From an uncultured virus (IMG/VR IMGVR_UViG_3300014205_009245) (Duplodnaviria > Heunggongvirae > Uroviricota > Caudoviricetes): DNA of 64,000 nt. The stretch is from IMG/VR virus record IMGVR_UViG_3300014205_009245, one strand, 5' to 3'. The notes under the pieces were generated by a model. That model worked only from the letters and a program-made list of their open reading frames with translations. It was not told the DNA's origin and ran no database searches. Of this stretch, positions 3,944 through 44,419 are shown piece after piece. A program made the translations under genes and the position numbers. Positions within the stretch are counted from its first letter, which is position 1; every line of letters starts with the position of its first letter.

Positions 3944-4309
3944 TTTGGCATCTCTCAACGGTCCACAATAGCCCGATGCATACCCAGCATAATAACCCAA
4001 TGCCAACGAATCGTCATTTGCGAGATCATGATCTTTGTGTATTCGGTCTCTCAGTAGTGCCCCGTTCATGGACATTCGGCCGAACGCAGTGCGTATCATA
4101 TCCACATCAACCCCCAAATGTAACGCAATTTCGTATAGATCCGGCTTTACACCATTCGATATTGATTTTGCGATAGCAATACCCCATGCTCCATCCCTGT
4201 CCCTGTCGGGTAATGATCTCCATTGATTCCCCATCAAATTACGAATAGCCTTCTCGTAAGGGATTTCAGGAATAATGTTTCTAGACACTTTGAACTCCTT
4301 CACTAACAA
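3932..4309 (-). CDS. hypothetical protein with possible winged helix-turn-helix
   Basis: PDLYEIALHLGVDVDMIRTAFGRM is HTH-like; last codons and stop lie in the IS remnant end. Confidence 0.55.
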   Translation of the reverse strand: MLVKEFKVSRNIIPEIPYEKAIRNLMGNQWRSLPDRDRDGAWGIAIAKSISNGVKPDLYEIALHLGVDVDMIRTAFGRMSMNGALLRDRIHKDHDLANDDSLALGYYAGYASGYCGPLRDAKSTT

Positions 4310-6074
4310 CGTTTAGAAGATTATTGGCGTCCCACTCACTGCGAGTGGGTAAAGTCAACGACAAAATCTCCTGGACTAACTCAAATGTACTTTTACAAGA
4401 AAGCAACTGAATAACGTTAGGTAAAGAAACGCTGTCAATTCCAGTTGCAACTAAAACCGTAACATTAAATCCGGCTTTCTTGAGAGATTTTTCTATAATA
4501 TCGTGTATTCCATATCCAGAACTACCAATTCGTACTATAACGATATTAGGTGTTACACCCATTTTCTTTGAATAAGATTTAAGCTGTTTGGCAAATTTCC
4601 CTTCATTATTTTCTCCCTCATCGGTAACTAATAATATTTGGTCTGCAACCTGGTTCTTAAGTTCCATTGCCATTAGAACCGCAGCAGGATCAGTTCCGCC
4701 ATTAGCCCGGAACATTGCCAGCTTTTTCTCCCAACTAGAGAGTAATGTTATATCTCCATCTTTCTTGTTCCATTCAATTTCTACTGGAGTTGCATCGAAT
4801 AGGTAAACGATAGGTTCATTGCCAGGAGCACATGCCTGTGCTATAGCCGCACTTAGTTGCTTCCCCAGATTAATAGACTCGGTCATCGATCCTGATTTAT
4901 CTATTAATAAAGCAGTTGGAACAGATATATTGCTATGATGCTTTAGCTGCTGATCGGTTATATCTTTCAACAAAGACTGAGTGTCTTTGTCTAGACCTTT
5001 AGTGCTAGCGGCTTTTTTGCCCTTCATTGCATCCATCCGGCCCTTTTTGGCTTTTTTGGCTTTTTCTAATTTGTCATGTATTAATTTCTTCAAATCTGGA
5101 TTGTCAAAAGCCCCTCGGCGTTTTAACAGGTCCATAGATTGCATAATCTCTTGATAAGACATCACCATAATCGATGCAGCCGTAACGGATGGAGTAATAT
5201 CAGACATAAGAGACGATACAACCGTAAACGGCAGATTATTTTCTGTAACAATTTCTGCCTGCCTAATTGGATCTTTCTCGTTTTGTAACGTTTTTAGAGC
5301 ATGTAATCTGGTGCCAGGAATTGTTTCATCGGCAAACAAATATCGATTAATCCAACTATTTGCATTACCAAGAGGTAAAGCATGGGTGCGAACATAAAAC
5401 TTCTTAATTGACTGTGCCGAACGGATCAAAGCCCCTTCCATCATAGCTGGATTGTTTTCTCGATATTTCAGATATGATTTAACAGCTCTTTTCAATATGC
5501 CCTTAAAATTGCGCTGGTTATAACACTTGTGGTGAACCAAATATGTGGTCGCGGTGATTTCCTTAGTATTGTAGTCGATTTTATTTTGTTTTATAAGCAA
5601 AGCTCGCAATTTACTTTTATTACCAAGCTTTATAACACGAACTGGCATATCCTTCCCTCTCTTCTCTGGATCGGGATGATTGCTTCCGTATTTGGCAATT
5701 TCATAAGTCACGCCGAATGAGTTCTGCTTGGGCATATCAGACTCATACGAATGCCGCACTATGGTCTCGTCATAACCAGTGACGTAATTGGCCACCCGGT
5801 CCGCCTCATATGGTGGAAGAGACTGAAACATAACATATCCGGCTTCTTGATGCTGTTCATATGAAGACACCAATAAAGTAGCAATGAACACCTCATTAAT
5901 ATCTCGAACCGCACAATTTTCACCAATGACACAATAGGCGGCTAGTTTACCATAAAAGTTTGGATCTCGCTCAAATTGAGACTTGTGCAAATGCAGGGTT
6001 TCGTCTACCTGCCTATGCGGAGTGCGAAGTAGAGCTTTGAACATTTCTTCTTGAACAGAAAATTGTGATTCCAT
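4281..6074 (-). CDS. vWA-domain protein with helical N-terminus, divergent TROVE/Ro60-like
   Basis: C-terminal MIDAS motifs LLIDKSGSM, GGTD, LVTDEGEN; N-terminal TPHR...DPNFYGKLAAY...VRD resembles the TROVE DP.F..KLA.Y.R segment; 597 aa, Ro60-like size. Confidence 0.75.
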   Translation of the reverse strand: MESQFSVQEEMFKALLRTPHRQVDETLHLHKSQFERDPNFYGKLAAYCVIGENCAVRDINEVFIATLLVSSYEQHQEAGYVMFQSLPPYEADRVANYVTGYDETIVRHSYESDMPKQNSFGVTYEIAKYGSNHPDPEKRGKDMPVRVIKLGNKSKLRALLIKQNKIDYNTKEITATTYLVHHKCYNQRNFKGILKRAVKSYLKYRENNPAMMEGALIRSAQSIKKFYVRTHALPLGNANSWINRYLFADETIPGTRLHALKTLQNEKDPIRQAEIVTENNLPFTVVSSLMSDITPSVTAASIMVMSYQEIMQSMDLLKRRGAFDNPDLKKLIHDKLEKAKKAKKGRMDAMKGKKAASTKGLDKDTQSLLKDITDQQLKHHSNISVPTALLIDKSGSMTESINLGKQLSAAIAQACAPGNEPIVYLFDATPVEIEWNKKDGDITLLSSWEKKLAMFRANGGTDPAAVLMAMELKNQVADQILLVTDEGENNEGKFAKQLKSYSKKMGVTPNIVIVRIGSSGYGIHDIIEKSLKKAGFNVTVLVATGIDSVSLPNVIQLLSCKSTFELVQEILSLTLPTRSEWDANNLLNVVSEGVQSV

Positions 6075-8050: not shown

Positions 8051-8635
8051 TCAATCACCACTATTTGGCGAATTATTCTCTTTCGAGCATTCAATGATAT
8101 GAACTTCGATTATAACGGATTTCGAGTTGTCTTCTGTCGAGAATGTCTCGCCAGAATCAAGGCTAACCCCAACAGGACATTCTGGGTTATCGGCAATATC
8201 GATAAAATCTGCCACGCGATAAAATCTAGAATCTTCGGTTGGCAATATCTCCTCGATTTTGCGATTTATGTCAGCGCAAGTGTCGGGCGTGTTGGCGATA
8301 CCGCGGAATGCGGCGTAGATCAGACTTAAAACATCGAGCCGAGATTCAATACTATAATCGTCATTAAAACACGATGCCAGTATCGCAGATGAATCAACAT
8401 TCACAGGAACCACAAACATTGCTCCCTCATAATTCGAAATATTAATATCCCTCAATAAGGATGAGAATAGATTTTGAGCGCACTCAGAAATAGATCTCGC
8501 TACGCCACTTTCTGCCATTTCTGTGCCAGAGCCTTCCCCAATTTCATCCCACTTAAAATTGGAAAGTAGCTTTTCGTGAGTGTTATCCGATTGATTTGGA
8601 TCGATGATATGATTTTTCTTGATTGACCCCATCAC
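8051..8635 (-). CDS. hypothetical acidic protein
   Basis: 194-aa ORF directly downstream of the ncRNA array, AAGGA RBS. Confidence 0.65.
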   Translation of the reverse strand: MMGSIKKNHIIDPNQSDNTHEKLLSNFKWDEIGEGSGTEMAESGVARSISECAQNLFSSLLRDINISNYEGAMFVVPVNVDSSAILASCFNDDYSIESRLDVLSLIYAAFRGIANTPDTCADINRKIEEILPTEDSRFYRVADFIDIADNPECPVGVSLDSGETFSTEDNSKSVIIEVHIIECSKENNSPNSGD

Positions 8636-8659
8636 AATTTCCTTTCAGATTCAAACAAA

Positions 8660-8739
8660 AAAGCCGCAATAGTCCGGAGGACAGTTCAACATTGGTCAAG
8701 AAAAATGTTTGTAGGTCCGTCCCTTTAGGTTGCGGCTTT
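8660..8739 (-). ncRNA. modular structured RNA, copy C (Y-RNA-like candidate)
   Basis: Terminal stem AAAGCCGCAA/UUGCGGCUUU, CCUAAAG loop, inner stem GGA(C)GGAC/GUCCUCC, UACAAAC, cargo hairpin AACAUU/AAUGUU. Confidence 0.7.
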
Positions 8740-8749
8740 ATACTAGATT

Positions 8750-8801
8750 CTTGTTCTCGGAATTACCCTTCGACTCCGATGGTAACTAGCCGAGAAACAA
8801 G
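8750..8801 (-). ncRNA. long imperfect hairpin within the RNA array
   Basis: CUUGUUUCUCGG..GUUACC..GGUAAU.CCGAGAACAAG fold-back. Confidence 0.4.
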
Positions 8802-8887
8802 CGAAATAAATTCAAAAAACCATGTAAAAAACATAACTGTTCCCCTTTTACTTACTACTCAAAACCGTACTCACATCGAGTACTAAC

Positions 8888-8970
8888 GCGAAGCAAAGGA
8901 GTTGAACCTTTGTGTCATCGACAGAGACAACTTTGACATCATCGTCCGACGAGATCTCACCGTCCCTCGC
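8888..8970 (-). ncRNA. aberrant tRNA-like element
   Basis: T-arm CAAAGG-UUCAACU-CCUUUG, acceptor-like GCGAGG/CUUCGC, D-like stem GACG/CGUC, variable hairpin UGUC-GAU-GACA; anticodon arm non-canonical. Confidence 0.5.
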
Positions 8971-8971
8971 A

Positions 8972-9023
8972 TGGTGCTCGGGAAGGGATGACTCCCAAAA
9001 TTAAATCCTTTCGGATCCCGAAC
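8972..9023 (-). ncRNA. CCA-terminated mini tRNA-like RNA (about 52 nt)
   Basis: GUUCGGGA/UCCCGAGC stem followed by ACCA; internal hairpins UCC-GAAA-GGA and GGGA-GUCA-UCCC. Confidence 0.5.
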
Positions 9024-9030
9024 AAATACA

Positions 9031-9165
9031 AAAAGTTGCGCAAGTTTACGAGGCCGTTTTTGTTTAACAATACAGGATTTGAACCTGCTACCATCACTTT
9101 ATTAGGAGTGTCGCTCTACCAATGAGCTAATTGTTTGTAAGCCAAGCCATTAGGGCGCAACTTTT
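9031..9165 (-). ncRNA. modular structured RNA, copy B, carrying a tRNA-like cloverleaf (9066-9135)
   Basis: 11-bp terminal stem AAAAGUUGCGC/GCGCAACUUUU, CCUAAU, UACAAAC, then D-arm GCUC-AUUGGUA-GAGC, T-arm GCAGG-UUCAAAU-CCUGU, acceptor AACAAU/AUUGUU, 8-nt anticodon loop, no CCA. Confidence 0.8.
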
Positions 9166-9184
9166 ATTCAATTTTAAAAGAACA

Positions 9185-9275
9185 CTCACAAAAGTTCGAC
9201 TGGACTTTTTGAGCCCACATTCGGGACTCAATTCACTCTTCCGCAAGTTTGTAATCCAACCTTTTAGGTTGTGAG
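9185..9275 (-). ncRNA. modular structured RNA, copy A (Y-RNA-like candidate)
   Basis: Terminal stem CUCACAA/UUGUGAG, CCUAAAA, inner stem GGUUGGA/UCCAGUC, UACAAAC, cargo hairpin UUGAGUCCC/GGGCUCAA. Confidence 0.7.
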
Positions 9276-9281
9276 CATACT

Positions 9282-9309
9282 ATTATACTCTATATTCTAC
9301 AGATTTCAA
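9282..9309 (-). promoter_or_regulatory. sigma70-like promoter of the ncRNA array
   Basis: TTGAAA (9304-9309), 16 nt, TATAAT (9282-9287); expected +1 near 9275-9276 coincides with the 5' end of RNA copy A. Confidence 0.7.
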
Positions 9310-9326
9310 GAAAACCCTCTAAATTT

Positions 9327-9716
9327 TTAAGAATTTTCTGGGCACCCACCACAGCTGGAAGCAGCACTGAAACTTTTGCCACATCCACAATTGTATTGTG
9401 CATTAGGGTTTAGAAATACAAAACCGGATTTCATCATACTCTCAACAAAATCGATTTGGCACCCATCTAGATAAATAAAGCTTTTGGGATCACAGATTAT
9501 GTCTATGCCTTCGCTATTATTTTTAATATAATCGACAGGACATTGTTCTTGTACATCTATTGTATATTCAAACCCGGAGCATCCACCTGCCTTAACGCCA
9601 ACACTCAGATAATACCGCGAACCTGGAGCGCCAGTGGAGTCTACGGAACATTGCGATCCTGAATCTTTGATAATCTTCTTAATTTGATCAGCAGCTCGAT
9701 TCGTCACTGTTATCAC
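9327..9716 (-). CDS. iscA: A-type iron-sulfur cluster carrier (HesB/IscA/ErpA family)
   Basis: GGCSGFEY, SFIYLDG..IDF, GFVFLNPNA..CGCGKSF. Confidence 0.93.
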   Translation of the reverse strand: MITVTNRAADQIKKIIKDSGSQCSVDSTGAPGSRYYLSVGVKAGGCSGFEYTIDVQEQCPVDYIKNNSEGIDIICDPKSFIYLDGCQIDFVESMMKSGFVFLNPNAQYNCGCGKSFSAASSCGGCPENS

Positions 9717-9832
9717 TCATATTCTCCTCAGATATCATGAATTTCAACCAATCTCATCATCGGCTTCAAACCAGCCTTTTGTGTATCCTTCAAGAAATTC
9801 ACCTGCCCATGCTTTGGAAATTGGCCGTATTC

Positions 9833-10390
9833 CTATGTGCTGTGAGATTCATTTTTAAGTGCAAATATTAACCCCTCCGGTAATTTCCAAAGATTAGATA
9901 CCGTGCCAGACGAAGCACATAATCTGTCCAAAATATCCGTTTTGGGCATATTCATCAATTTAACTTGATACGGCAAAAACATTGACTTGTAATTCTGGCC
10001 CCACTGAAAATAAACCCCATCCTGTTTATCATCCCATGCCATAGGATTTGCCAAATAGACTACATCATTTATGATGTAGAAATAAAAAGTACTTGTTTGA
10101 AGCTTGGAAACAGTAACTCCGTTGTTAATTAAATTTCCATAAATATTTTCCAAAACAATGTCAGCGCTATTCATCACATTGGTCAAATTTTCTGATAAGA
10201 ATCCTTCCCGAATAATCTGATTACCCACGCTGTCGATCACGCCAACATAAAAACCTTTGTGCGGAATTTCAAGAGACTGTTGTAGCATAGAATTGTGCAC
10301 AAATAGTTGCCCAACATCAATTTTTGCTACGAGCTTACTTCGAAAATAATTGGCAAGTTGTTGCCAGATTTCTTTAGATATCATGTTCAT
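9833..10390 (-). CDS. divergent AMMECR1-domain protein (AmrA-like)
   Basis: KGFYVGV, DGVYF, SMFLPYQV, ILDRLC match the AMMECR1 G.FV / DG / .FLP.V / L..LC pattern; LRGCIG motif not conserved. Confidence 0.6.
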   Translation of the reverse strand: MNMISKEIWQQLANYFRSKLVAKIDVGQLFVHNSMLQQSLEIPHKGFYVGVIDSVGNQIIREGFLSENLTNVMNSADIVLENIYGNLINNGVTVSKLQTSTFYFYIINDVVYLANPMAWDDKQDGVYFQWGQNYKSMFLPYQVKLMNMPKTDILDRLCASSGTVSNLWKLPEGLIFALKNESHST

Positions 10391-10643: not shown

Positions 10644-11616
10644 TTAGTAACTCCTTCATGACGGCAAATATTTTTTCAGATGAATTTCCCAAATATAAGT
10701 ATGGCTTAGATAGTATTTCATAATTATCAGGCAATTCACCTGCTACATAAGTCTGTATCCGTTCTTTGCACTCATCTGGCCATCCATTCTCTACTGCAAA
10801 ATCGCCGAAATACCCAGTTTTGTAAAATGATCTATACTGGTTTTTAAAATTGATCAAAAAAGATTTTTTACCACACGCGATAGCATCGAGCACAGTTGTA
10901 GAATCACGGTGAGTTAACACTGCGTATGATTTTTTGATGAGACAAATTGGATCATTTTTAGGATCAGAGAATTCTGCAGCACTAAATATCTGTTTTAATC
11001 CAGAAATATTATCCTCTCGATAATGCGGTTGAATTAGTAATTCTACTTTTTTATCTATACCCGACAAAGTTCTTAATAACCTTGAAGATAATGGATTGCT
11101 ACGATGAGTGCCATTAACTTTTTCGTACATAACTGGTGGACAGAAATAAACATATGACCCCGACGGATTTGGAATGATATTGTCATATTTGGGGCTGCCC
11201 GTAACCGCGACTTTTGATCGAGCAGAGTAGGGCCATAAACTCACCATGTCTTTTACGTTATCACCGTATAGAAACGTGCAATTGGGTAAAAATTCTGGGT
11301 TCTTCTTATTAGTAACATAAATCCACTGCCCATGTTGCAAAAAAAAGCTTTTAACGCCATGCTTTCTGCACCATTTGCAAATATATTGTCCCGTTGGCCA
11401 AAATACATCCCCGACAACGGCAGCATCGAAGGGCATATATTGTAAGAGGATTTTTTCTACTGTTTTTTCGTCTAAAATATCCATTTTATCCCCGAATTGC
11501 CCGAGGTTAAATGGAATTATTTCAAATTCGTGATTATGCAGAGCAAGTTTGTTAAATGCTTCATTTGTTACTTTATTGTAATACAGAAGTAATAGTTTTG
11601 CCAGCGGAGACTTCAC
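10633..11616 (-). CDS. putative GT-B fold transferase (CDP-glycerophosphotransferase / ulosonate transferase-like)
   Basis: LQHG, VTGSPKYD, QPHYRE, STTVLDAIACGK motifs. Confidence 0.6.
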   Translation of the reverse strand: MKSPLAKLLLLYYNKVTNEAFNKLALHNHEFEIIPFNLGQFGDKMDILDEKTVEKILLQYMPFDAAVVGDVFWPTGQYICKWCRKHGVKSFFLQHGQWIYVTNKKNPEFLPNCTFLYGDNVKDMVSLWPYSARSKVAVTGSPKYDNIIPNPSGSYVYFCPPVMYEKVNGTHRSNPLSSRLLRTLSGIDKKVELLIQPHYREDNISGLKQIFSAAEFSDPKNDPICLIKKSYAVLTHRDSTTVLDAIACGKKSFLINFKNQYRSFYKTGYFGDFAVENGWPDECKERIQTYVAGELPDNYEILSKPYLYLGNSSEKIFAVMKELLNVS

Positions 11617-31881: not shown

Positions 31882-33164
31882 CCCCTGTAGATATAAGCGA
31901 ACTTTTAAATTTCTTACGAGGAATTATACTCAATTTCCTTGTATAATTCAATAGAAATGCCAATGAAATCTTTTAAATACAGGCTTTATCCCACTCGAAA
32001 ACAAGAGCAACTACTTATAAACACTCTAAATACTTGTAGGCACACATATAACGATGCACTTGAACAAAGAAAAGAGGCTTATCAAAACACTCAAAAAACT
32101 TTAACTTATAACCAGCAGGCGAACAACTTAGCTAAAAATAAGAATCATTACCAGTCTCAAGTTTATTCTCAGGTGCTACAAAACGTTCTTAAAAGGCTCG
32201 ATAAATCTTATAAAAGATTTTTCGATCGATGCAAACAGGGAACAAAAAAAGCAGGATTTCCACGCTTTAAGAGTTTTAATAGATATCGTTCTTTTACTTA
32301 TCCTCAGTTGGGCTTTAGAATTACATCAAATAATAAAAGAGTAGAACTTTCTAAAATTGGTTGTGTTAAGATGGTTTATAGTAGGCCAATTTTAGGAGAT
32401 ATAAAAACGTGCCAAGTGGTACGAGATGTAGATCATTGGTACGTTATCTTTGCTTGTGATATAGAGCAAGAATTTATCATACATTCTAATCCTGGTTCTG
32501 TTGTAGGAATAGATGTAGGGATTAAAACTTTATGTGCTTTATCTACTGGAGAAACTATAGAGAATCCTAAGTTCTTAAAGAAAACAGAACATTCACTCGC
32601 AAGAACACAGAGAACTTTTTCAAGAAAACCCACAAAGACTAGCAACAGAAGGAACAAGCAACGAATCAAAGTAGCACGTCTACACAGAAAAATACGATTT
32701 CAAAGAGATGATTATTTACACAAAGCGTCTTCTTGTCTAGCAAAGAGCTTTGAAACCATAGTTTTTGAAGATTTAACAGTTTCTAATATGGTTAAAAACC
32801 ATAAGTTAGCTAAAAGCATAAGTGACTGTTCTTGGAATAAATTAGTTCAATACACTACCTACAAGGCTGAGAGTGCCGGTGGGAAAGTGGAGCTAGTTAA
32901 TCCCAAGAATACCAGCCAATTATGTAGCTCTTGTGGTTCGATGGTTAGGAAAGATTTAAGTGTTAGAATACATAAATGCCCTTGTTGTGGGGACGTAGAA
33001 GACAGAGACTTAAATGCTAGCAAAAATATTTTAAATAGATATACCGTAGGGCTTGCGGGAATAAACGCTCTAGGAGAACAATCCTCTACTTTGCTAGAAA
33101 TGGCGGGGCAAGAATGTTCAGTGATTAGAGAATCTGTGGGACTTTAGTCCCTGCGGAGTGTCAA
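31852..33164 (+). mobile_element. IS200/IS605-family element with solo tnpB (IS1341-like)
   Basis: Similar subterminal hairpins ctacggggttttaacccctgtag (31868-31890) and tctgtgggactttagtccctgcgga (33133-33157); right end TCAA; TTAT immediately 5'; no tnpA. Confidence 0.85.
31963..33147 (+). CDS. tnpB: RNA-guided endonuclease TnpB
   Basis: KYRLYPT HTH, GIDVGI (RuvC-I), VFEDL (RuvC-II), TSQLCSSCG..CPCCG zinc finger, DRDLNASKNI (RuvC-III); all catalytic residues present. Confidence 0.96.
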   Translation: MKSFKYRLYPTRKQEQLLINTLNTCRHTYNDALEQRKEAYQNTQKTLTYNQQANNLAKNKNHYQSQVYSQVLQNVLKRLDKSYKRFFDRCKQGTKKAGFPRFKSFNRYRSFTYPQLGFRITSNNKRVELSKIGCVKMVYSRPILGDIKTCQVVRDVDHWYVIFACDIEQEFIIHSNPGSVVGIDVGIKTLCALSTGETIENPKFLKKTEHSLARTQRTFSRKPTKTSNRRNKQRIKVARLHRKIRFQRDDYLHKASSCLAKSFETIVFEDLTVSNMVKNHKLAKSISDCSWNKLVQYTTYKAESAGGKVELVNPKNTSQLCSSCGSMVRKDLSVRIHKCPCCGDVEDRDLNASKNILNRYTVGLAGINALGEQSSTLLEMAGQECSVIRESVGL

Positions 33165-41430: not shown

Positions 41431-42344
41431 TGATTATCCTTGAACCATTCATAGGTTTTTTGGATGCCATATTCAAAGGAAGTAAAATCATGGAAACCTA
41501 ATTTTTCTACTTTTTCAATAGATACGTCCCTTCGCAGCACTCCATCTGAACCGCCTTTAAATAAAATCTTTCCAGAAAATCCAATTTTTGAAGAAATTAC
41601 AGCAGCAATTTGCTTAATAGAAAGATTCTCAGGCGGTGCAAAATTTATTTCCCCGGTTGGTTTATTCTTCAGGCAGAACATTATAAATTTTGATAAATCG
41701 TCAACAAAAGTCATTTGTCGCAATGCTTTACCCGTGCCCAGCAATTCCACAGCCGGAGAATTAATATTCTCGTGGAATCTTCGCATTAGTGCAGCTACAA
41801 CATGTGATTTGTTTGTCTCAAAACAATCGTATGGACCATACAAATTACTGGAATGAATCACAGTGTATTTCATCGGACTGTTGAATTGCTTATCTAAGCA
41901 TTTAAGCTGAATTGGCATCATTCGCTTTGCATATGCATATCCATAGATACTCTTATCTGGTTCTCCATATTGGGATAATTCCTCAGATATCGGAAAGTTA
42001 TTTATCTCAGGAGAATACACACAAACACTTGACATTGCAACTAGATATTCAATTTTAAATTTAAAACAGGCATTAATGATATTACTATTAATTATAATGT
42101 TCTGATAGAAAAAGTCATAGGGATGCTGTAATTGGTCTGGAATTCCCCCAACCTTTCCCGCAAGATGAATAACTGTTTTAGGATTAAATTTTTTAAACAT
42201 ATTTTCAACTTGATCATAATCCATTAAATCATAATCTTCTCTGCTGGTGTATATTGCATCAATTGCATCAGGCAGGAACTTTTGCAAAGACTTTCCTGCC
42301 ATACCTTTTCCGCCCGTAACTAATATCATACTCGTAATCTCCAA
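41424..42344 (-). CDS. fcl: GDP-L-fucose synthase-like epimerase/reductase
   Basis: TGGKGMAG, HLAGKVGGI, SSVCVY, GYAYAKR, NLYGP.D, SHVVAAL, GTGKALR. Confidence 0.85.
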   Translation of the reverse strand: MEITSMILVTGGKGMAGKSLQKFLPDAIDAIYTSREDYDLMDYDQVENMFKKFNPKTVIHLAGKVGGIPDQLQHPYDFFYQNIIINSNIINACFKFKIEYLVAMSSVCVYSPEINNFPISEELSQYGEPDKSIYGYAYAKRMMPIQLKCLDKQFNSPMKYTVIHSSNLYGPYDCFETNKSHVVAALMRRFHENINSPAVELLGTGKALRQMTFVDDLSKFIMFCLKNKPTGEINFAPPENLSIKQIAAVISSKIGFSGKILFKGGSDGVLRRDVSIEKVEKLGFHDFTSFEYGIQKTYEWFKDNQC

Positions 42345-44419
42345 TAATTTAACATGTCGTTTAACATCTGGTCAATACTAATTTCTGGTTGCCATCCAGT
42401 TTCCTTTTTAAATTTGGAACAATCTGGTATCTGAAGAGTTACATCTGAAGGTCTCAATCTAGATGCGTCTACTTCTATCTTAATATCACCTCGTGTAGAA
42501 AAGCTCATTAACCGATTGAGCATTTCTTTTATAGACATTGTTTCATTCCCGCCGATATTATACACTTCGCCTATTGAACATTTATTTACCATTAACCAAT
42601 ATGCTTTTACAACATCTCGAACATCAGCAAAGGTCCTGATGCTGTCAAGGTTACCAACTTTAATTACTGGTTCTTGCTTGCCTTTCTCTATTTGGGCAAT
42701 TTGTTTGGCAAAATTAGATCCGACAAAAACATCACCTCTTCTTGGGCCACAATGAGTAAACATACGGCTTCGTATAACTTTCAATCCCCATGATAAATAA
42801 TATTGAAATCCTAACATATCCTCACATACTTTTGAAACAGCATACGGAGAGGCCGGCCTGAGCTGACAGCTTTCATTGATAGGCACTTCATCGGGAAGAA
42901 CCTGACCATACACCTCTGAGGATGAGCATACAAGTATGATTGGATCTATTCCGTTTACTCTGGATAATTTAATAGCTTCTAATAAGTTGCATGTGCCCTG
43001 ACAGTTAACATCTAAAGTTGTAACAGGAGCCTGGAAACTGTATGGAACATAAGAGTTATGAATTATAAGATTTCCTACACCTGCTGCGAAAATCTCTGGG
43101 CCTCCGATTGAAATATCATATACATAACCTTCGTATGGCATAGTGGTAATTGTTCTTTTGGTTACTCCTTGCCGTGGCTGATAAAAACCACACTCACGAA
43201 TAAAAAACGCTCCATTCTCATATATTGTATAATCTTTTCCAATAAGGGTTAATAGTAAACACAATTGCGCAGCAAGTTTTCTAGATGACGTAGTATATCT
43301 TAAAATATCATAACGTTGTCTTTCCTCGTAGCAACCGTCACCTTCAGCCAAAACTCTTAGAAAATCAAGCTGTTTCTCTTTCGGCAGACGGAAAATAAAA
43401 TTCGGAATTTGTTTGAATTCGCTTAGTCTTCCACAATATTTTGTTATTATATCATAAAGTAATTCCGATGTAATTGTTAAACTAAAAACATCTTTATAAC
43501 CAGACTTTTTACCAGTACTATATCTACCAGTTATGCCTTCGCTGAAATGCTGCAATTCTTTGTTTCTTTCTGCTAGCCATTCCTTATTTTGATTACTAAT
43601 TGTAACTGTAAAATTTTTTCTTTTTACCCTTGAGTGCGCACATCCCTCCGATATGTAAGCGGCACAAAATCTTGTAAAACTATCAAGTTTTTCTCCCGAC
43701 AAGACAACTGGAATTCTTTTGTTGGGAATATTTGGAATAAAAAAGCAATCTTTGTATTTTTTATACTTTCGTGTAGTTTTGATCCGTACTTCCGTTATCT
43801 CATTTTTATTATAATAATTAATCTTTCTCATAGGCAGGAGTTCTGGATTATCCATCGGAGACGCCAATTGCCCATATTTATCTATTACACAATGATTGGG
43901 GGTAACTTTTATTGATCCAAATTTTTGCTTTAATTCAACAATGTCACCATTATATTTATGTCGTGTAATCTGTTGGATTGGTAACCAATTTCCCATCCCA
44001 GAAAAAAAGCTTATAGCCCGTATCTGTGAGTTTTTTATATTTATTATTTCTGTTTCGATTCCATTATGAACAGTAGATTTAATATTATTTCTTTTTGAGC
44101 ACGTTTTCCAAAGTTCGCCAAAGGTGATTAATTCCATGCTTTTTGATTTTAAAATTGGAATAAATTCATCTTCTGCCACCGACTGCGCAGCCAGATGAAA
44201 AACGAAATCTGGTTTGACATCATTTATAATACCAAATATTGACGGATAATCTGTCAGATCGCCATAGTGTAAATGAATTTCATTCTCAATATGTTTTATG
44301 TTGTCTTTTGGAGACCGCCATCGAGCTAAGCCATGAATTTGCATATCACCCAAAGACAATAAATATTCAGACAAATGGCTGCCTACAAATCCAGTAATTC
44401 CAGTAATCAGTGCGTTCAA
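42326..44419 (-). CDS. gmd: GDP-mannose 4,6-dehydratase-family enzyme interrupted by an intein
   Basis: ITGITGFVG, GDLTD, HLAAQ|S.V..SF, SSSEVYG, SPYAVSK, GNLDS.R; extein is 321 aa. Confidence 0.88.
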   Translation of the reverse strand: MNALITGITGFVGSHLSEYLLSLGDMQIHGLARWRSPKDNIKHIENEIHLHYGDLTDYPSIFGIINDVKPDFVFHLAAQSVAEDEFIPILKSKSMELITFGELWKTCSKRNNIKSTVHNGIETEIINIKNSQIRAISFFSGMGNWLPIQQITRHKYNGDIVELKQKFGSIKVTPNHCVIDKYGQLASPMDNPELLPMRKINYYNKNEITEVRIKTTRKYKKYKDCFFIPNIPNKRIPVVLSGEKLDSFTRFCAAYISEGCAHSRVKRKNFTVTISNQNKEWLAERNKELQHFSEGITGRYSTGKKSGYKDVFSLTITSELLYDIITKYCGRLSEFKQIPNFIFRLPKEKQLDFLRVLAEGDGCYEERQRYDILRYTTSSRKLAAQLCLLLTLIGKDYTIYENGAFFIRECGFYQPRQGVTKRTITTMPYEGYVYDISIGGPEIFAAGVGNLIIHNSYVPYSFQAPVTTLDVNCQGTCNLLEAIKLSRVNGIDPIILVCSSSEVYGQVLPDEVPINESCQLRPASPYAVSKVCEDMLGFQYYLSWGLKVIRSRMFTHCGPRRGDVFVGSNFAKQIAQIEKGKQEPVIKVGNLDSIRTFADVRDVVKAYWLMVNKCSIGEVYNIGGNETMSIKEMLNRLMSFSTRGDIKIEVDASRLRPSDVTLQIPDCSKFKKETGWQPEISIDQMLNDMLNYWRLRV
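43055..44182 (-). mobile_element. intein (376 aa) with LAGLIDADG homing endonuclease
   Basis: Starts SVAEDE, block B VTPNH, LAGLIDADG-like AAYISEG and LAEGDG, block F YVYDI, ends IHN followed by Ser; removal restores HLAAQSYVPYSF. Confidence 0.93.

Follow-up and report, generated by a model that had tools for sequence, protein, structure and literature searches.

The window analysed here is a stretch of 64,000 nucleotides (nt) from an uncultured Caudoviricetes virus (IMG/VR record IMGVR_UViG_3300014205_009245). Between minus-strand genes of this window lies a gene-free stretch of 690 nt (8636-9326), which holds three copies of an RNA scaffold, termed RNA1, RNA2 and RNA3 (8660-9278 only; no copies elsewhere in the 64 kilobases (kb)). 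Each unit is built from a terminal stem, CCUAA(A/U)(A/G), an inner stem, UACAAAC, a variable module, (A/G)ACU(U/A), a closing strand and a U-rich run. In RNA2, the subject of this report, the variable module is a tRNA-like cloverleaf. A gene predicted to encode a Ro60-fold protein lies 2.96 kb downstream of RNA2 on the same strand. The parts of RNA2, in transcript order, and this gene are as follows.

9031..9165, minus strand: RNA2, the complete scaffold-plus-cloverleaf RNA with its U-rich tail (119.1 bits with covariance model R1, for which it was a seed)
9155..9165, minus strand: 5' strand of the terminal stem P2 (AAAAGUUGCGC), 11 nt, 100% complementary to 9031-9041
9148..9154, minus strand: 5' side of the conserved internal loop, CCUAAUG (family alignment)
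9140..9147, minus strand: 5' strand of the inner stem P1 (GCUUGGCU), pairing with 9055-9048 around a 2x2 internal mismatch (folding)
9133..9139, minus strand: UACAAAC junction motif, whose final AAAC opens the acceptor strand (the tRNA model starts at its fourth base, 9136)
9064..9136, minus strand: tRNA-like cloverleaf (Rfam tRNA model, ARAGORN and folding)
9136-9130 and 9071-9065, minus strand: acceptor stem of the cloverleaf
9127-9113, minus strand: D arm
9111-9094, minus strand: anticodon arm, with its loop at 9106-9099
9088-9072, minus strand: T arm
9064, minus strand: the A at position 73
9056..9063, minus strand: 3' junction ACAAAAAC from the acceptor stem to P1 (the site of NCCA in 20 of 88 relatives)
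9048..9055, minus strand: 3' strand of P1 (GGCCUCGU) (folding)
9042..9047, minus strand: 3' side of the conserved internal loop, AAACUU (family alignment)
9031..9041, minus strand: 3' strand of P2 (GCGCAACUUUU), leading into the U-rich tail (perfect inverted repeat with 9155-9165)
4281..6074, minus strand: gene for the divergent Ro60-like protein of 597 amino acids (aa), a helical ring plus vWA domain (predicted fold)

ARAGORN called a single tRNA-type gene in the window, at 9064-9136 on the minus strand, and returned it as 'tRNA-???' with an irregular anticodon and no amino acid assigned. The Rfam tRNA model (RF00005) matched the same place at 48.2 bits (gathering score 29, expectation value (E) 3.1e-7) and was the sole family above threshold in the window. 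In the Rfam alignment, the D arm (GCUC-AUUGGUA-GAGC) and the T arm (GCAGG-UUCAAAU-CCUGU) are standard and the elbow nucleotides are intact. The acceptor stem (AAACAAU/AUUGUUA) has an A.A at pair 1-72, leaving 6 base pairs (bp), not 7. The anticodon stem (ACACU/AGUGA) likewise has an A.A at its top, leaving 4 bp, not 5, and closes a loop of 8 nt (CCUAAUAA). The encoded tail is AACA, not NCCA, and both ends of the cloverleaf run on into paired stems. An earlier reading, made from the letters alone (the sequence-only reading), had listed the D and T arms, the 6-bp acceptor stem, the 4-bp anticodon stem with its 8-nt loop and the lack of CCA, and had proposed ARAGORN scoring as a check; these features are all present on the minus strand, and the check gave the call described above. 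Its statement that both ends continue into a scaffold corresponds to the 11-bp terminal stem and the inner stem, and the double use of the UACAAAC end as acceptor start agrees with the point at which the tRNA model begins.

We observed that the 135-nt RNA2 folds into P2, a 7-nt/6-nt internal loop, P1 and then the D, anticodon and T hairpins. The A/U-rich acceptor stem fell outside this minimum-energy fold; the isolated 73 nt folded into a cloverleaf. Its parts follow one another as acceptor, D, anticodon, T and acceptor, and it has an anticodon loop. The z-score of the whole-RNA fold was only -1.95, and the UACAAAC heptamer was not enriched in the whole window (7 found vs 8.9 expected). RNA2 is more than a chance arrangement because of its tRNA score and its covarying family, not because of the heptamer count.

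The family was assembled from loci related to the window through a protein profile (13 viral, 80 metagenomic and 79 genome loci, the last mostly from filamentous cyanobacteria, e.g. Nostoc, Moorena and Calothrix). A pattern rule demanding a 7-bp terminal stem, CC, the heptamer and ACU(U/A/C) found 62 scaffold copies, all of them sharing the strand of the Ro60-like gene (0 on the opposite strand); with a looser rule the counts were 89 and 6. Three features independent of these detection criteria supported the copies: a seventh P2 pair formed in 46 of 54 (22 of 54 when slid), a perfect 7-bp P1 was present in 27 of 54 (6% with swapped partners), and a run of at least 4 T followed the stem in 22 of 54, compared to 9% of random 16-mers. 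The pattern script reached only 34 of the 95 sources and 8 of the 79 genome loci, and the covariance model reached far wider. A combined motif pattern gave no match in the first six loci. Exact matches to 16 bases of the anticodon arm in 5 viral-contig loci were dropped from the counts as chance, none of them lying with a tRNA.

Covariance model R1 was built from 18 hand-picked scaffold-plus-cloverleaf RNAs. In their alignment 87.1% of cells were paired (36-44% when slid), 27 of 38 pairs had changes on both sides, and all six helices were supported by covariation. R1 gave 302 matches in the 95 sources, with 297 of the 300 among the matches listed on the strand of the Ro60-like gene. In the genome loci there were 129 matches at E up to 1e-12, spread over 67 of 79 loci and all upstream of the gene on its strand; the other 12 of 79 had no strong R1 match. 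The best 150 of the 302 matches (132 distinct rows) were 93.8% paired (37-47% when slid) with compensating changes in 38 of 38 pairs, in an alignment that was fitted to the model and so leans toward it. The family helix P1 was 87-91% paired and covarying, and P2 covaried as well. Model R2 describes the scaffold only and was built from 19 minimal copies with RNA2 left out. It found RNA2 at 47.3 bits (E 8.6e-11), treating the tRNA body as a 57-nt insertion in an AAAC-led hairpin.

The scaffold adjoined the Ro60-like gene in whole records too. At R1 scores of at least 77 bits, matches in three such records lay beside the gene in 2 of 2, 3 of 4 and 1 of 1 cases. The exception was a scaffolded 'tRNA-Lys(CUU)' at 10795-10866 (R1 77 bits) within a 15-tRNA array (locus L179, 10537-12390, on a second contig of a Calothrix-type genome). 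In a 595-kb uncultured phage (locus L001), 15 plus-strand TACAAAC motifs lie in the 3.4 kb upstream of the Ro60-like gene, and the 25-kb locus contains 20 in all where 4 were expected (reached in 0 of 100 shuffles). Three tRNA-type genes in L001 begin inside the TACAAAC motif.

For the analysis of conserved letters we used 88 distinct rows with letters in all scaffold and cloverleaf stems, taken from the 132 rows of the best 150 R1 matches. They come from 55 of the 95 sources and include the 18 R1 seeds; 44 tRNA-only or scaffold-only rows were left out. CCUAA formed the first five letters of the internal loop in 36 of 88 members, and most others had a CCNAA-type sequence. The 3' side read AACUU in 47 and GACUU in 28 members, and UUAC preceded the acceptor in 63. 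RNA2 carries every element of the family, namely P2, the CCNAA/RACUU loop, P1, the UUAC junction and the AAAC-led stem. These data point to a large family of scaffold RNAs, apparently undescribed, beside divergent Ro60-type genes in giant phages and cyanobacteria. In the full-text literature we found no description of the scaffold or its motif, nor of this Ro60-like subfamily together with its RNAs, in a search with some supplements, some figures and one review outside its scope. In the same literature we found no paper linking UACAAAC or TACAAAC with Ro60, TROVE or Y RNA, and nothing linking Ro60 with huge phages, cyanobacteria with Y RNA, or tRNA arrays with vWA/TROVE. Ro60, TROVE and Y RNA are likewise absent from the text of the huge-phage paper PMC7162821.

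We also assessed the protein encoded at 4281-6074. The Pfam TROVE domain gave no match in the 597-aa protein, and Pfam vWA_Ro60 was weak (E 8.6e-4, below cut-off). An AlphaFold2 model computed from an alignment reached a mean predicted local distance difference test (pLDDT) score of 84.3. The top 12 Foldseek matches of the protein in the PDB were all Ro60, Rsr or Thermus phage Ro60 (423-612 columns, E 5e-11 to 6.5e-8). When the PDB was searched with a profile built from 32 relatives, the three best matches were TROVE/Rsr entries (E about 6e-4), and the ESM Atlas gave template modelling (TM) scores of 0.63-0.68 to TROVE/Ro60 clusters. The protein carries an extra beta-rich insert around residues 100-185. 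By its predicted structure, the 597-aa protein is a divergent member of the Ro60 fold. Scanning viral contigs with the single Ro60-like protein found no relative; the profile scan succeeded. The sole relative in the phage database is in the 595-kb phage, and closer relatives occur on contigs reaching 522 kb, so the window most likely belongs to a giant phage genome.

To describe the anticodon loops we used the same 88 RNAs. The loop had 7 nt in 80, 6 nt in 5, 16-17 nt in 2 and 8 nt in RNA2 alone. Among the 80 seven-nt loops there were 33 different triplets, of which 11 loops carried one starting with A and 8 one that would read a stop codon. The entropy at triplet positions 34-36 was 1.78-1.85 bits, compared to 0.56 at U33. 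A38 was present in 59 of 80. All 15 members with Ser- or Leu-type anticodons had a 5-nt variable region and no long arm. Position 1 was almost always A, and nearly all members began the acceptor with AAAC whatever the anticodon; pair 1-72 was mismatched in 18 of 88. Orthologues in related loci varied in both triplet and loop length. Anticodon identity is unconstrained across the family.

The sequence-only reading had named a sequencing indel as an alternative source of the 8-nt loop. We observed that contigs of two runs from two studies, either of which may be the source of the window, are identical over 8640-9330, including the 8-nt loop. A third study contains a strain that is about 90-93% identical, in which 9063-9165 differs at three places, all in the anticodon arm. 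A T>A change at 9111 restores the fifth stem pair, and a one-base deletion at 9105 together with a T>A change at 9103 gives a 7-nt loop, CUUAUAA. Outside the anticodon arm, 9063-9165 is identical in this strain, which differs at about 6% of neighbouring positions. Because two further substitutions accompany it, the 7-nt form is natural variation and not a sequencing indel. On the contig and strain comparisons, the 8-nt loop is real and specific to its lineage, and it lies where the RNA is under least constraint. The suggestion that it acts as a frameshift suppressor appears weak: RNA2 has the only 8-nt loop among the 88, a near-identical strain has a 7-nt loop, and RNA2 also lacks a closed pair 1-72, the fifth anticodon-stem pair and CCA. 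The other suggestion of the sequence-only reading, an anticodon-nuclease decoy, would be consistent with the data.

The scaffold does not carry cloverleaves alone. It also holds permuted tRNA-like modules (T arm, closed acceptor hairpin, D arm, anticodon-like arm), modules in which the D arm is missing, and plain acceptor-like hairpins. In a 'hairpin form', P2 is closed by a tetraloop and stands in for the D arm. Because permuted and hairpin-only modules share the scaffold, it does not depend on a releasable tRNA. One permuted module, from a cyanobacterium, matched the Rfam YrlA model at 32.9 bits (E 1.3e-4, cut-off 69) over model positions 24-84 of 114, and this match was confined to the tRNA-like core. 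In the phage loci L011, L019 and L001 the YrlA model matched nothing at E up to 0.01.

At L001 7768-7894 the tRNA model matched over 127 nt (50.6 bits) with the hairpin form at the D-arm site, which is a third way of joining scaffold to tRNA-like body. A hairpin version of the scaffold (ACUUGG-stem-tetraloop-stem-CCCC) also lies at L001 11918-11945, in the 5' leader of the Ro60-like gene, where it would suit autoregulation of that gene. The Ro60-like gene of the window has a promoter-like site at that place, and the hairpin scaffold is absent.

From bacteria to humans, Y RNAs are conserved together with their Ro60 partners. One of the closest described systems is YrlA (RF02553; bacteria and mycobacteriophages), and RNA2 resembles it as a small RNA near a Ro60-family gene, with its 5' and 3' ends paired into a stem and a variable part that mimics tRNA through conserved D and T arms and elbow; both often occur as several different copies per locus. 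In the available text of PMC4201824 and bioRxiv 10.1101/312249, YrlA resembles a tRNA whose parts are circularly permuted: its acceptor stem is closed, it lacks an anticodon loop, and the position of the anticodon stem leads to the Ro60 site. The sequence-only reading had drawn the same contrast, and correctly as far as these sources describe YrlA: RNA2 has normal tRNA order, an anticodon arm, and its stem at the acceptor end. Its stem motifs are CCUAA, AACUU and UUAC, and not the GNCGAAN0-1G given for YrlA in the available text of PMC4201824 (RNA2 was checked by eye). The partner differs as well, being a divergent Ro60 relative missed by Pfam TROVE, with three genes between. The YrlA covariance model gave no match in 8500-9900 at E up to 10. 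By analogy, RNA2 may be Y-RNA-like of the YrlA kind in its working, yet it falls outside the YrlA family by stem motif, by the order of its parts, by its anticodon loop and by model.

The attachment of the handle at the acceptor end, which the sequence-only reading had emphasised, is borne out, but it is not wholly new. As described by Chen et al. (available text of PMC4201824), Yrn1 of D. radiodurans, the first bacterial Y RNA, carries its T- and D-like elements in the order found in tRNA, separated by a hairpin that resembles an anticodon arm (5-bp stem, 6-nt loop), and its Ro-binding stem is on the acceptor side, as in RNA2. On this comparison by description, Yrn1 lacks both a full D arm and a variable arm and resembles tRNA only weakly, whereas RNA2 passes the tRNA cut-off. 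The topology of RNA2 is closer to Yrn1 than to YrlA. Thermus phage phiLo provides a phage precedent: it encodes a Ro60 with the Y-like RNA genes Yrl1 and Yrl2 upstream of its gene (available text of PMC12135203), and this phage Ro60 (PDB 9KOP, 9L5Y) was among the best sequence and fold matches of the window protein. Yrl1 and Yrl2 were chosen by a CGAA motif and a stem-bulge-stem fold, and the term 'tRNA-like' is absent from the available text of that paper. A canonical tRNA shares with RNA2 U8, A14, G18-G19, the UUCAAAU T loop, G53-C61 and a score above cut-off. RNA2 departs from it in its 8-nt loop, its 4-bp anticodon stem, its 6-bp acceptor, the missing CCA, the leader and trailer paired into a conserved scaffold, and an anticodon identity that varies among relatives.

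Overall, our data suggest that the RNA2 cloverleaf is probably the tRNA-shaped module of a Y-RNA-type non-coding RNA, and hence a tRNA mimic and not a decoding tRNA. The computed parts of this interpretation are the fold, the conservation, the covariation, the linkage to a Ro60-fold gene and the free anticodon identity. Mimicry was one of two branches left open by the sequence-only reading, and it fits the family data and the Ro60-fold gene downstream on the same strand. In the proposed arrangement, the ends of the ~135-nt transcript would pair into a bipartite stem, P2 then P1, parted by the conserved internal loop with CCUAA on its 5' side and AACUU on its 3' side. The UUAC junction would lead directly into the AAAC acceptor strand, so that the tRNA-like body takes the place of a 'loop' on the stem. 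The putative binding site of the divergent Ro60-like protein would comprise the conserved internal loop and the junction; CCUAA, AACUU and UUAC look like a protein-contact signature because they stay constant while both stems covary. The acceptor/T-arm stack and the D/T-loop elbow may offer an L-shaped tRNA surface to some tRNA-binding factor, and the anticodon arm would retain the frame of a tRNA loop with a triplet free to vary. In described Y RNAs, the two ends of the RNA form a bulged helix to which Ro60 binds, and a further factor is recruited by the variable module (available text of PMC4201824, 10.1101/312249 and PMC12135203). RNA2 has this functional feature, an end-paired stem plus a variable effector module. 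Across phages and cyanobacteria, no gene other than the Ro60-fold gene is linked to the scaffold, and from this linkage and the Y-RNA analogy we infer that the Ro60-like protein may bind RNA2 through the scaffold.

Several observations weigh against this interpretation. The Ro60-contact motifs GGUCCGA (animals) and GNCGAAN0-1G or CGAA (bacteria and phage), as given in the available text of the sources above, were absent from the scaffold by eye, and the Rfam Y-RNA families gave no match in the region at E up to 10. RNA1 was recovered by neither R1 nor R2 and is the weakest member. A look for RNA runs containing the stretch gave none. Three genes, two of them glycan-like, separate the RNAs from the Ro60-like gene, which has a promoter-like site of its own, and the first 20 kb of the contig with the L179 array contain no Ro60-like gene. 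Other features of the family would suit a genuine tRNA precursor, the main rival, in which P1 and P2 form a processing or regulatory cassette; a tRNA, cut out by RNase P and a 3' nuclease, would be given CCA and charged, and RNA2 would then be an odd tRNA whose 8-nt loop might read four bases. Of the 80 seven-nt loops, 73 retain U33 and 76 have a purine at 37, NCCA follows the acceptor stem in 20 of 88 members (absent from RNA2), and an A-U pair at 1-72 gives a 7-bp acceptor in 55 of 88. Triplets start with U in 36 of 80, and U-initial triplets are common in phage tRNAs. RNA2 itself has a good tRNA model score and intact elbow nucleotides. RNase P cleaves the YrlA of M. smegmatis, to which CCA is added (available text of PMC4201824), one scaffolded copy lies within a tRNA array, and such arrays are expressed and charged in Anabaena (available text of PMC8421152).

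Nevertheless, we consider the precursor reading unlikely. The A.A at 1-72, the missing CCA, the 4-bp anticodon stem and the 8-nt loop of RNA2 all argue against it. So do the A-initial triplets (11 of 80), the Ser/Leu types lacking a long arm (15 of 15), the 6-nt loops in orthologues and the use of one AAAC acceptor start for 33 anticodons. Permuted and hairpin-only modules in the same scaffold could not yield a tRNA. The open reading frames (ORFs) of the window read through in the standard code, so there is no apparent need for recoding. For RNA2 itself a releasable tRNA is unlikely; the precursor reading may apply to some relatives that encode NCCA. It is highly improbable that RNA2 is a decaying tRNA pseudogene devoid of function, with an inverted repeat around it by chance. 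Such decay would agree with an anticodon arm that is the most degenerate in the family, an A/U-rich acceptor stem outside the minimum-energy fold and the modest z-score. It would leave unexplained that R2 finds RNA2 without having been built from it, that the flanking stems covary in dozens of loci, and that the strain comparison shows no change in 9063-9165 outside the anticodon arm. Related loci are low in identity and carry compensating changes, which argues against recent copies of a single mobile element. Three further candidates were set aside: an ordinary phage tRNA, against which the family data argue; a large RNA of the GOLLD/ROOL type, for which there was no Rfam match; and a suppressor tRNA for a recoded phage, the ORFs being open in the standard code.

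A mimic displayed in many versions could serve a wider purpose, although what follows is speculative and we give it little weight. The Ro60-like protein and the scaffold RNAs might form a particle that displays a repertoire of tRNA bodies, either as bait or sensor for anticodon-loop enzymes or as a tether of repair or quality-control enzymes to damaged tRNAs. As bait or sensor, the RNAs would keep the loop frame (C/U32, U33, purine 37, A38) and vary the triplet, with targets such as anticodon nucleases and tRNA-targeting toxins of defence systems. As a tether, they would bring enzymes to damaged tRNAs during translational stress. An arms race or stress module would fit because strain differences concentrate in the anticodon arm, because several copies with different triplets occur per locus, and because tRNA arrays and paralogues of EF-Ts and L7/L12 lie nearby in cyanobacteria.

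In four metagenomic loci (L087, L095, L098 and L092), the Ro60-like gene is preceded by a row of between five and a dozen tRNA-type genes, either scaffolded or plain, with triplets that vary from copy to copy. Two cyanobacterial loci carry translation-factor paralogues out of context, an EF-Ts paralogue after the Ro60-like gene at L157 7549-8274 and a ribosomal protein L7/L12 paralogue before it at L145 5335-5727.

We know of no binding target for the tRNA-like modules of bacterial Y RNAs. If our interpretation is true, the scaffold defines a second, large class of Ro60-associated RNAs with a different protein-contact scaffold, joined to tRNA-like bodies in normal, permuted and reduced form. 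The class would be widespread in giant phages and filamentous cyanobacteria, some of them culturable and genetically tractable, and would offer an experimental handle on the purpose of tRNA mimicry by Y RNAs. Dozens of annotated cyanobacterial and phage 'tRNA genes' would then probably not be tRNAs, and Ro60-type proteins would be tied to the tRNA arrays and translation-stress islands of cyanobacteria.

The other features of the gene-free stretch are as follows.

9282..9309, minus strand: promoter-like site TTGAAA, 16 nt, TATAAT just upstream of RNA1 (11 of 12 consensus positions; consensus match alone)
9182..9278, minus strand: RNA1, scaffold copy with a non-tRNA module (pattern script; fold z-score -2.7)
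8740..9030, minus strand: structured spacer between RNA2 and RNA3, with a T-arm-like AGGUUCAACUCCU at 8909-8897 (fold z-score -3.0, 0 of 200 shuffles as stable)
8660..8739, minus strand: RNA3, minimal copy with an acceptor-like hairpin alone (AAACAUU...AAUGUU), then a U run (R2 53.3 bits, as a seed)

RNA1 consists of the terminal stem GCUCACAA/UUGUGAGU, a CCUAAAA loop, the inner stem, UACAAAC and a GAACUU loop. RNA3, which is not an R1 seed, scored 38 bits with R1 and had a fold z-score of -4.1. The spacer (292 nt) includes a 12-bp hairpin at about 8798-8750. Over 8740-9030 it had no Rfam match at E up to 10, and no alignment could be made with the corresponding spacer of L007, the closest locus. 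A blastn search of 8600-9340 against the phage collection gave no match.

The three genes between the RNAs and the Ro60-like gene were not named by Pfam, PHROGs or NCBIfam except for a weak glycosyl-hydrolase match, and these searches gave no RNA-related signatures. PDB sequence searches with two of them gave no match. A glycosyltransferase-like fold was suggested by the ESM Atlas for a neighbouring protein of 324 aa. No RNA-repair enzymes were found among the 68 window ORFs scanned. The window also encodes the thymidylate synthase ThyX and a dCMP deaminase.

On the other side of the RNAs, a continuous sugar/glycan gene island, unusually large for a phage, extends over 10633-57000 on the minus strand. 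It contains many GT2/GT1 transferases, epimerases, dehydratases and B12/radical-SAM (S-adenosylmethionine) enzymes, together with a KDO-8-P-synthase-like gene, a cytidylyltransferase, and transketolase and E1 subunits. Within it, a GDP-mannose 4,6-dehydratase gene (42326-44419, minus strand) is split by an intein with a LAGLIDADG endonuclease domain, and a TnpB/IS605 OrfB-type gene with a Cas12f-like TNB domain (31939-33147) is one of the rare plus-strand genes.

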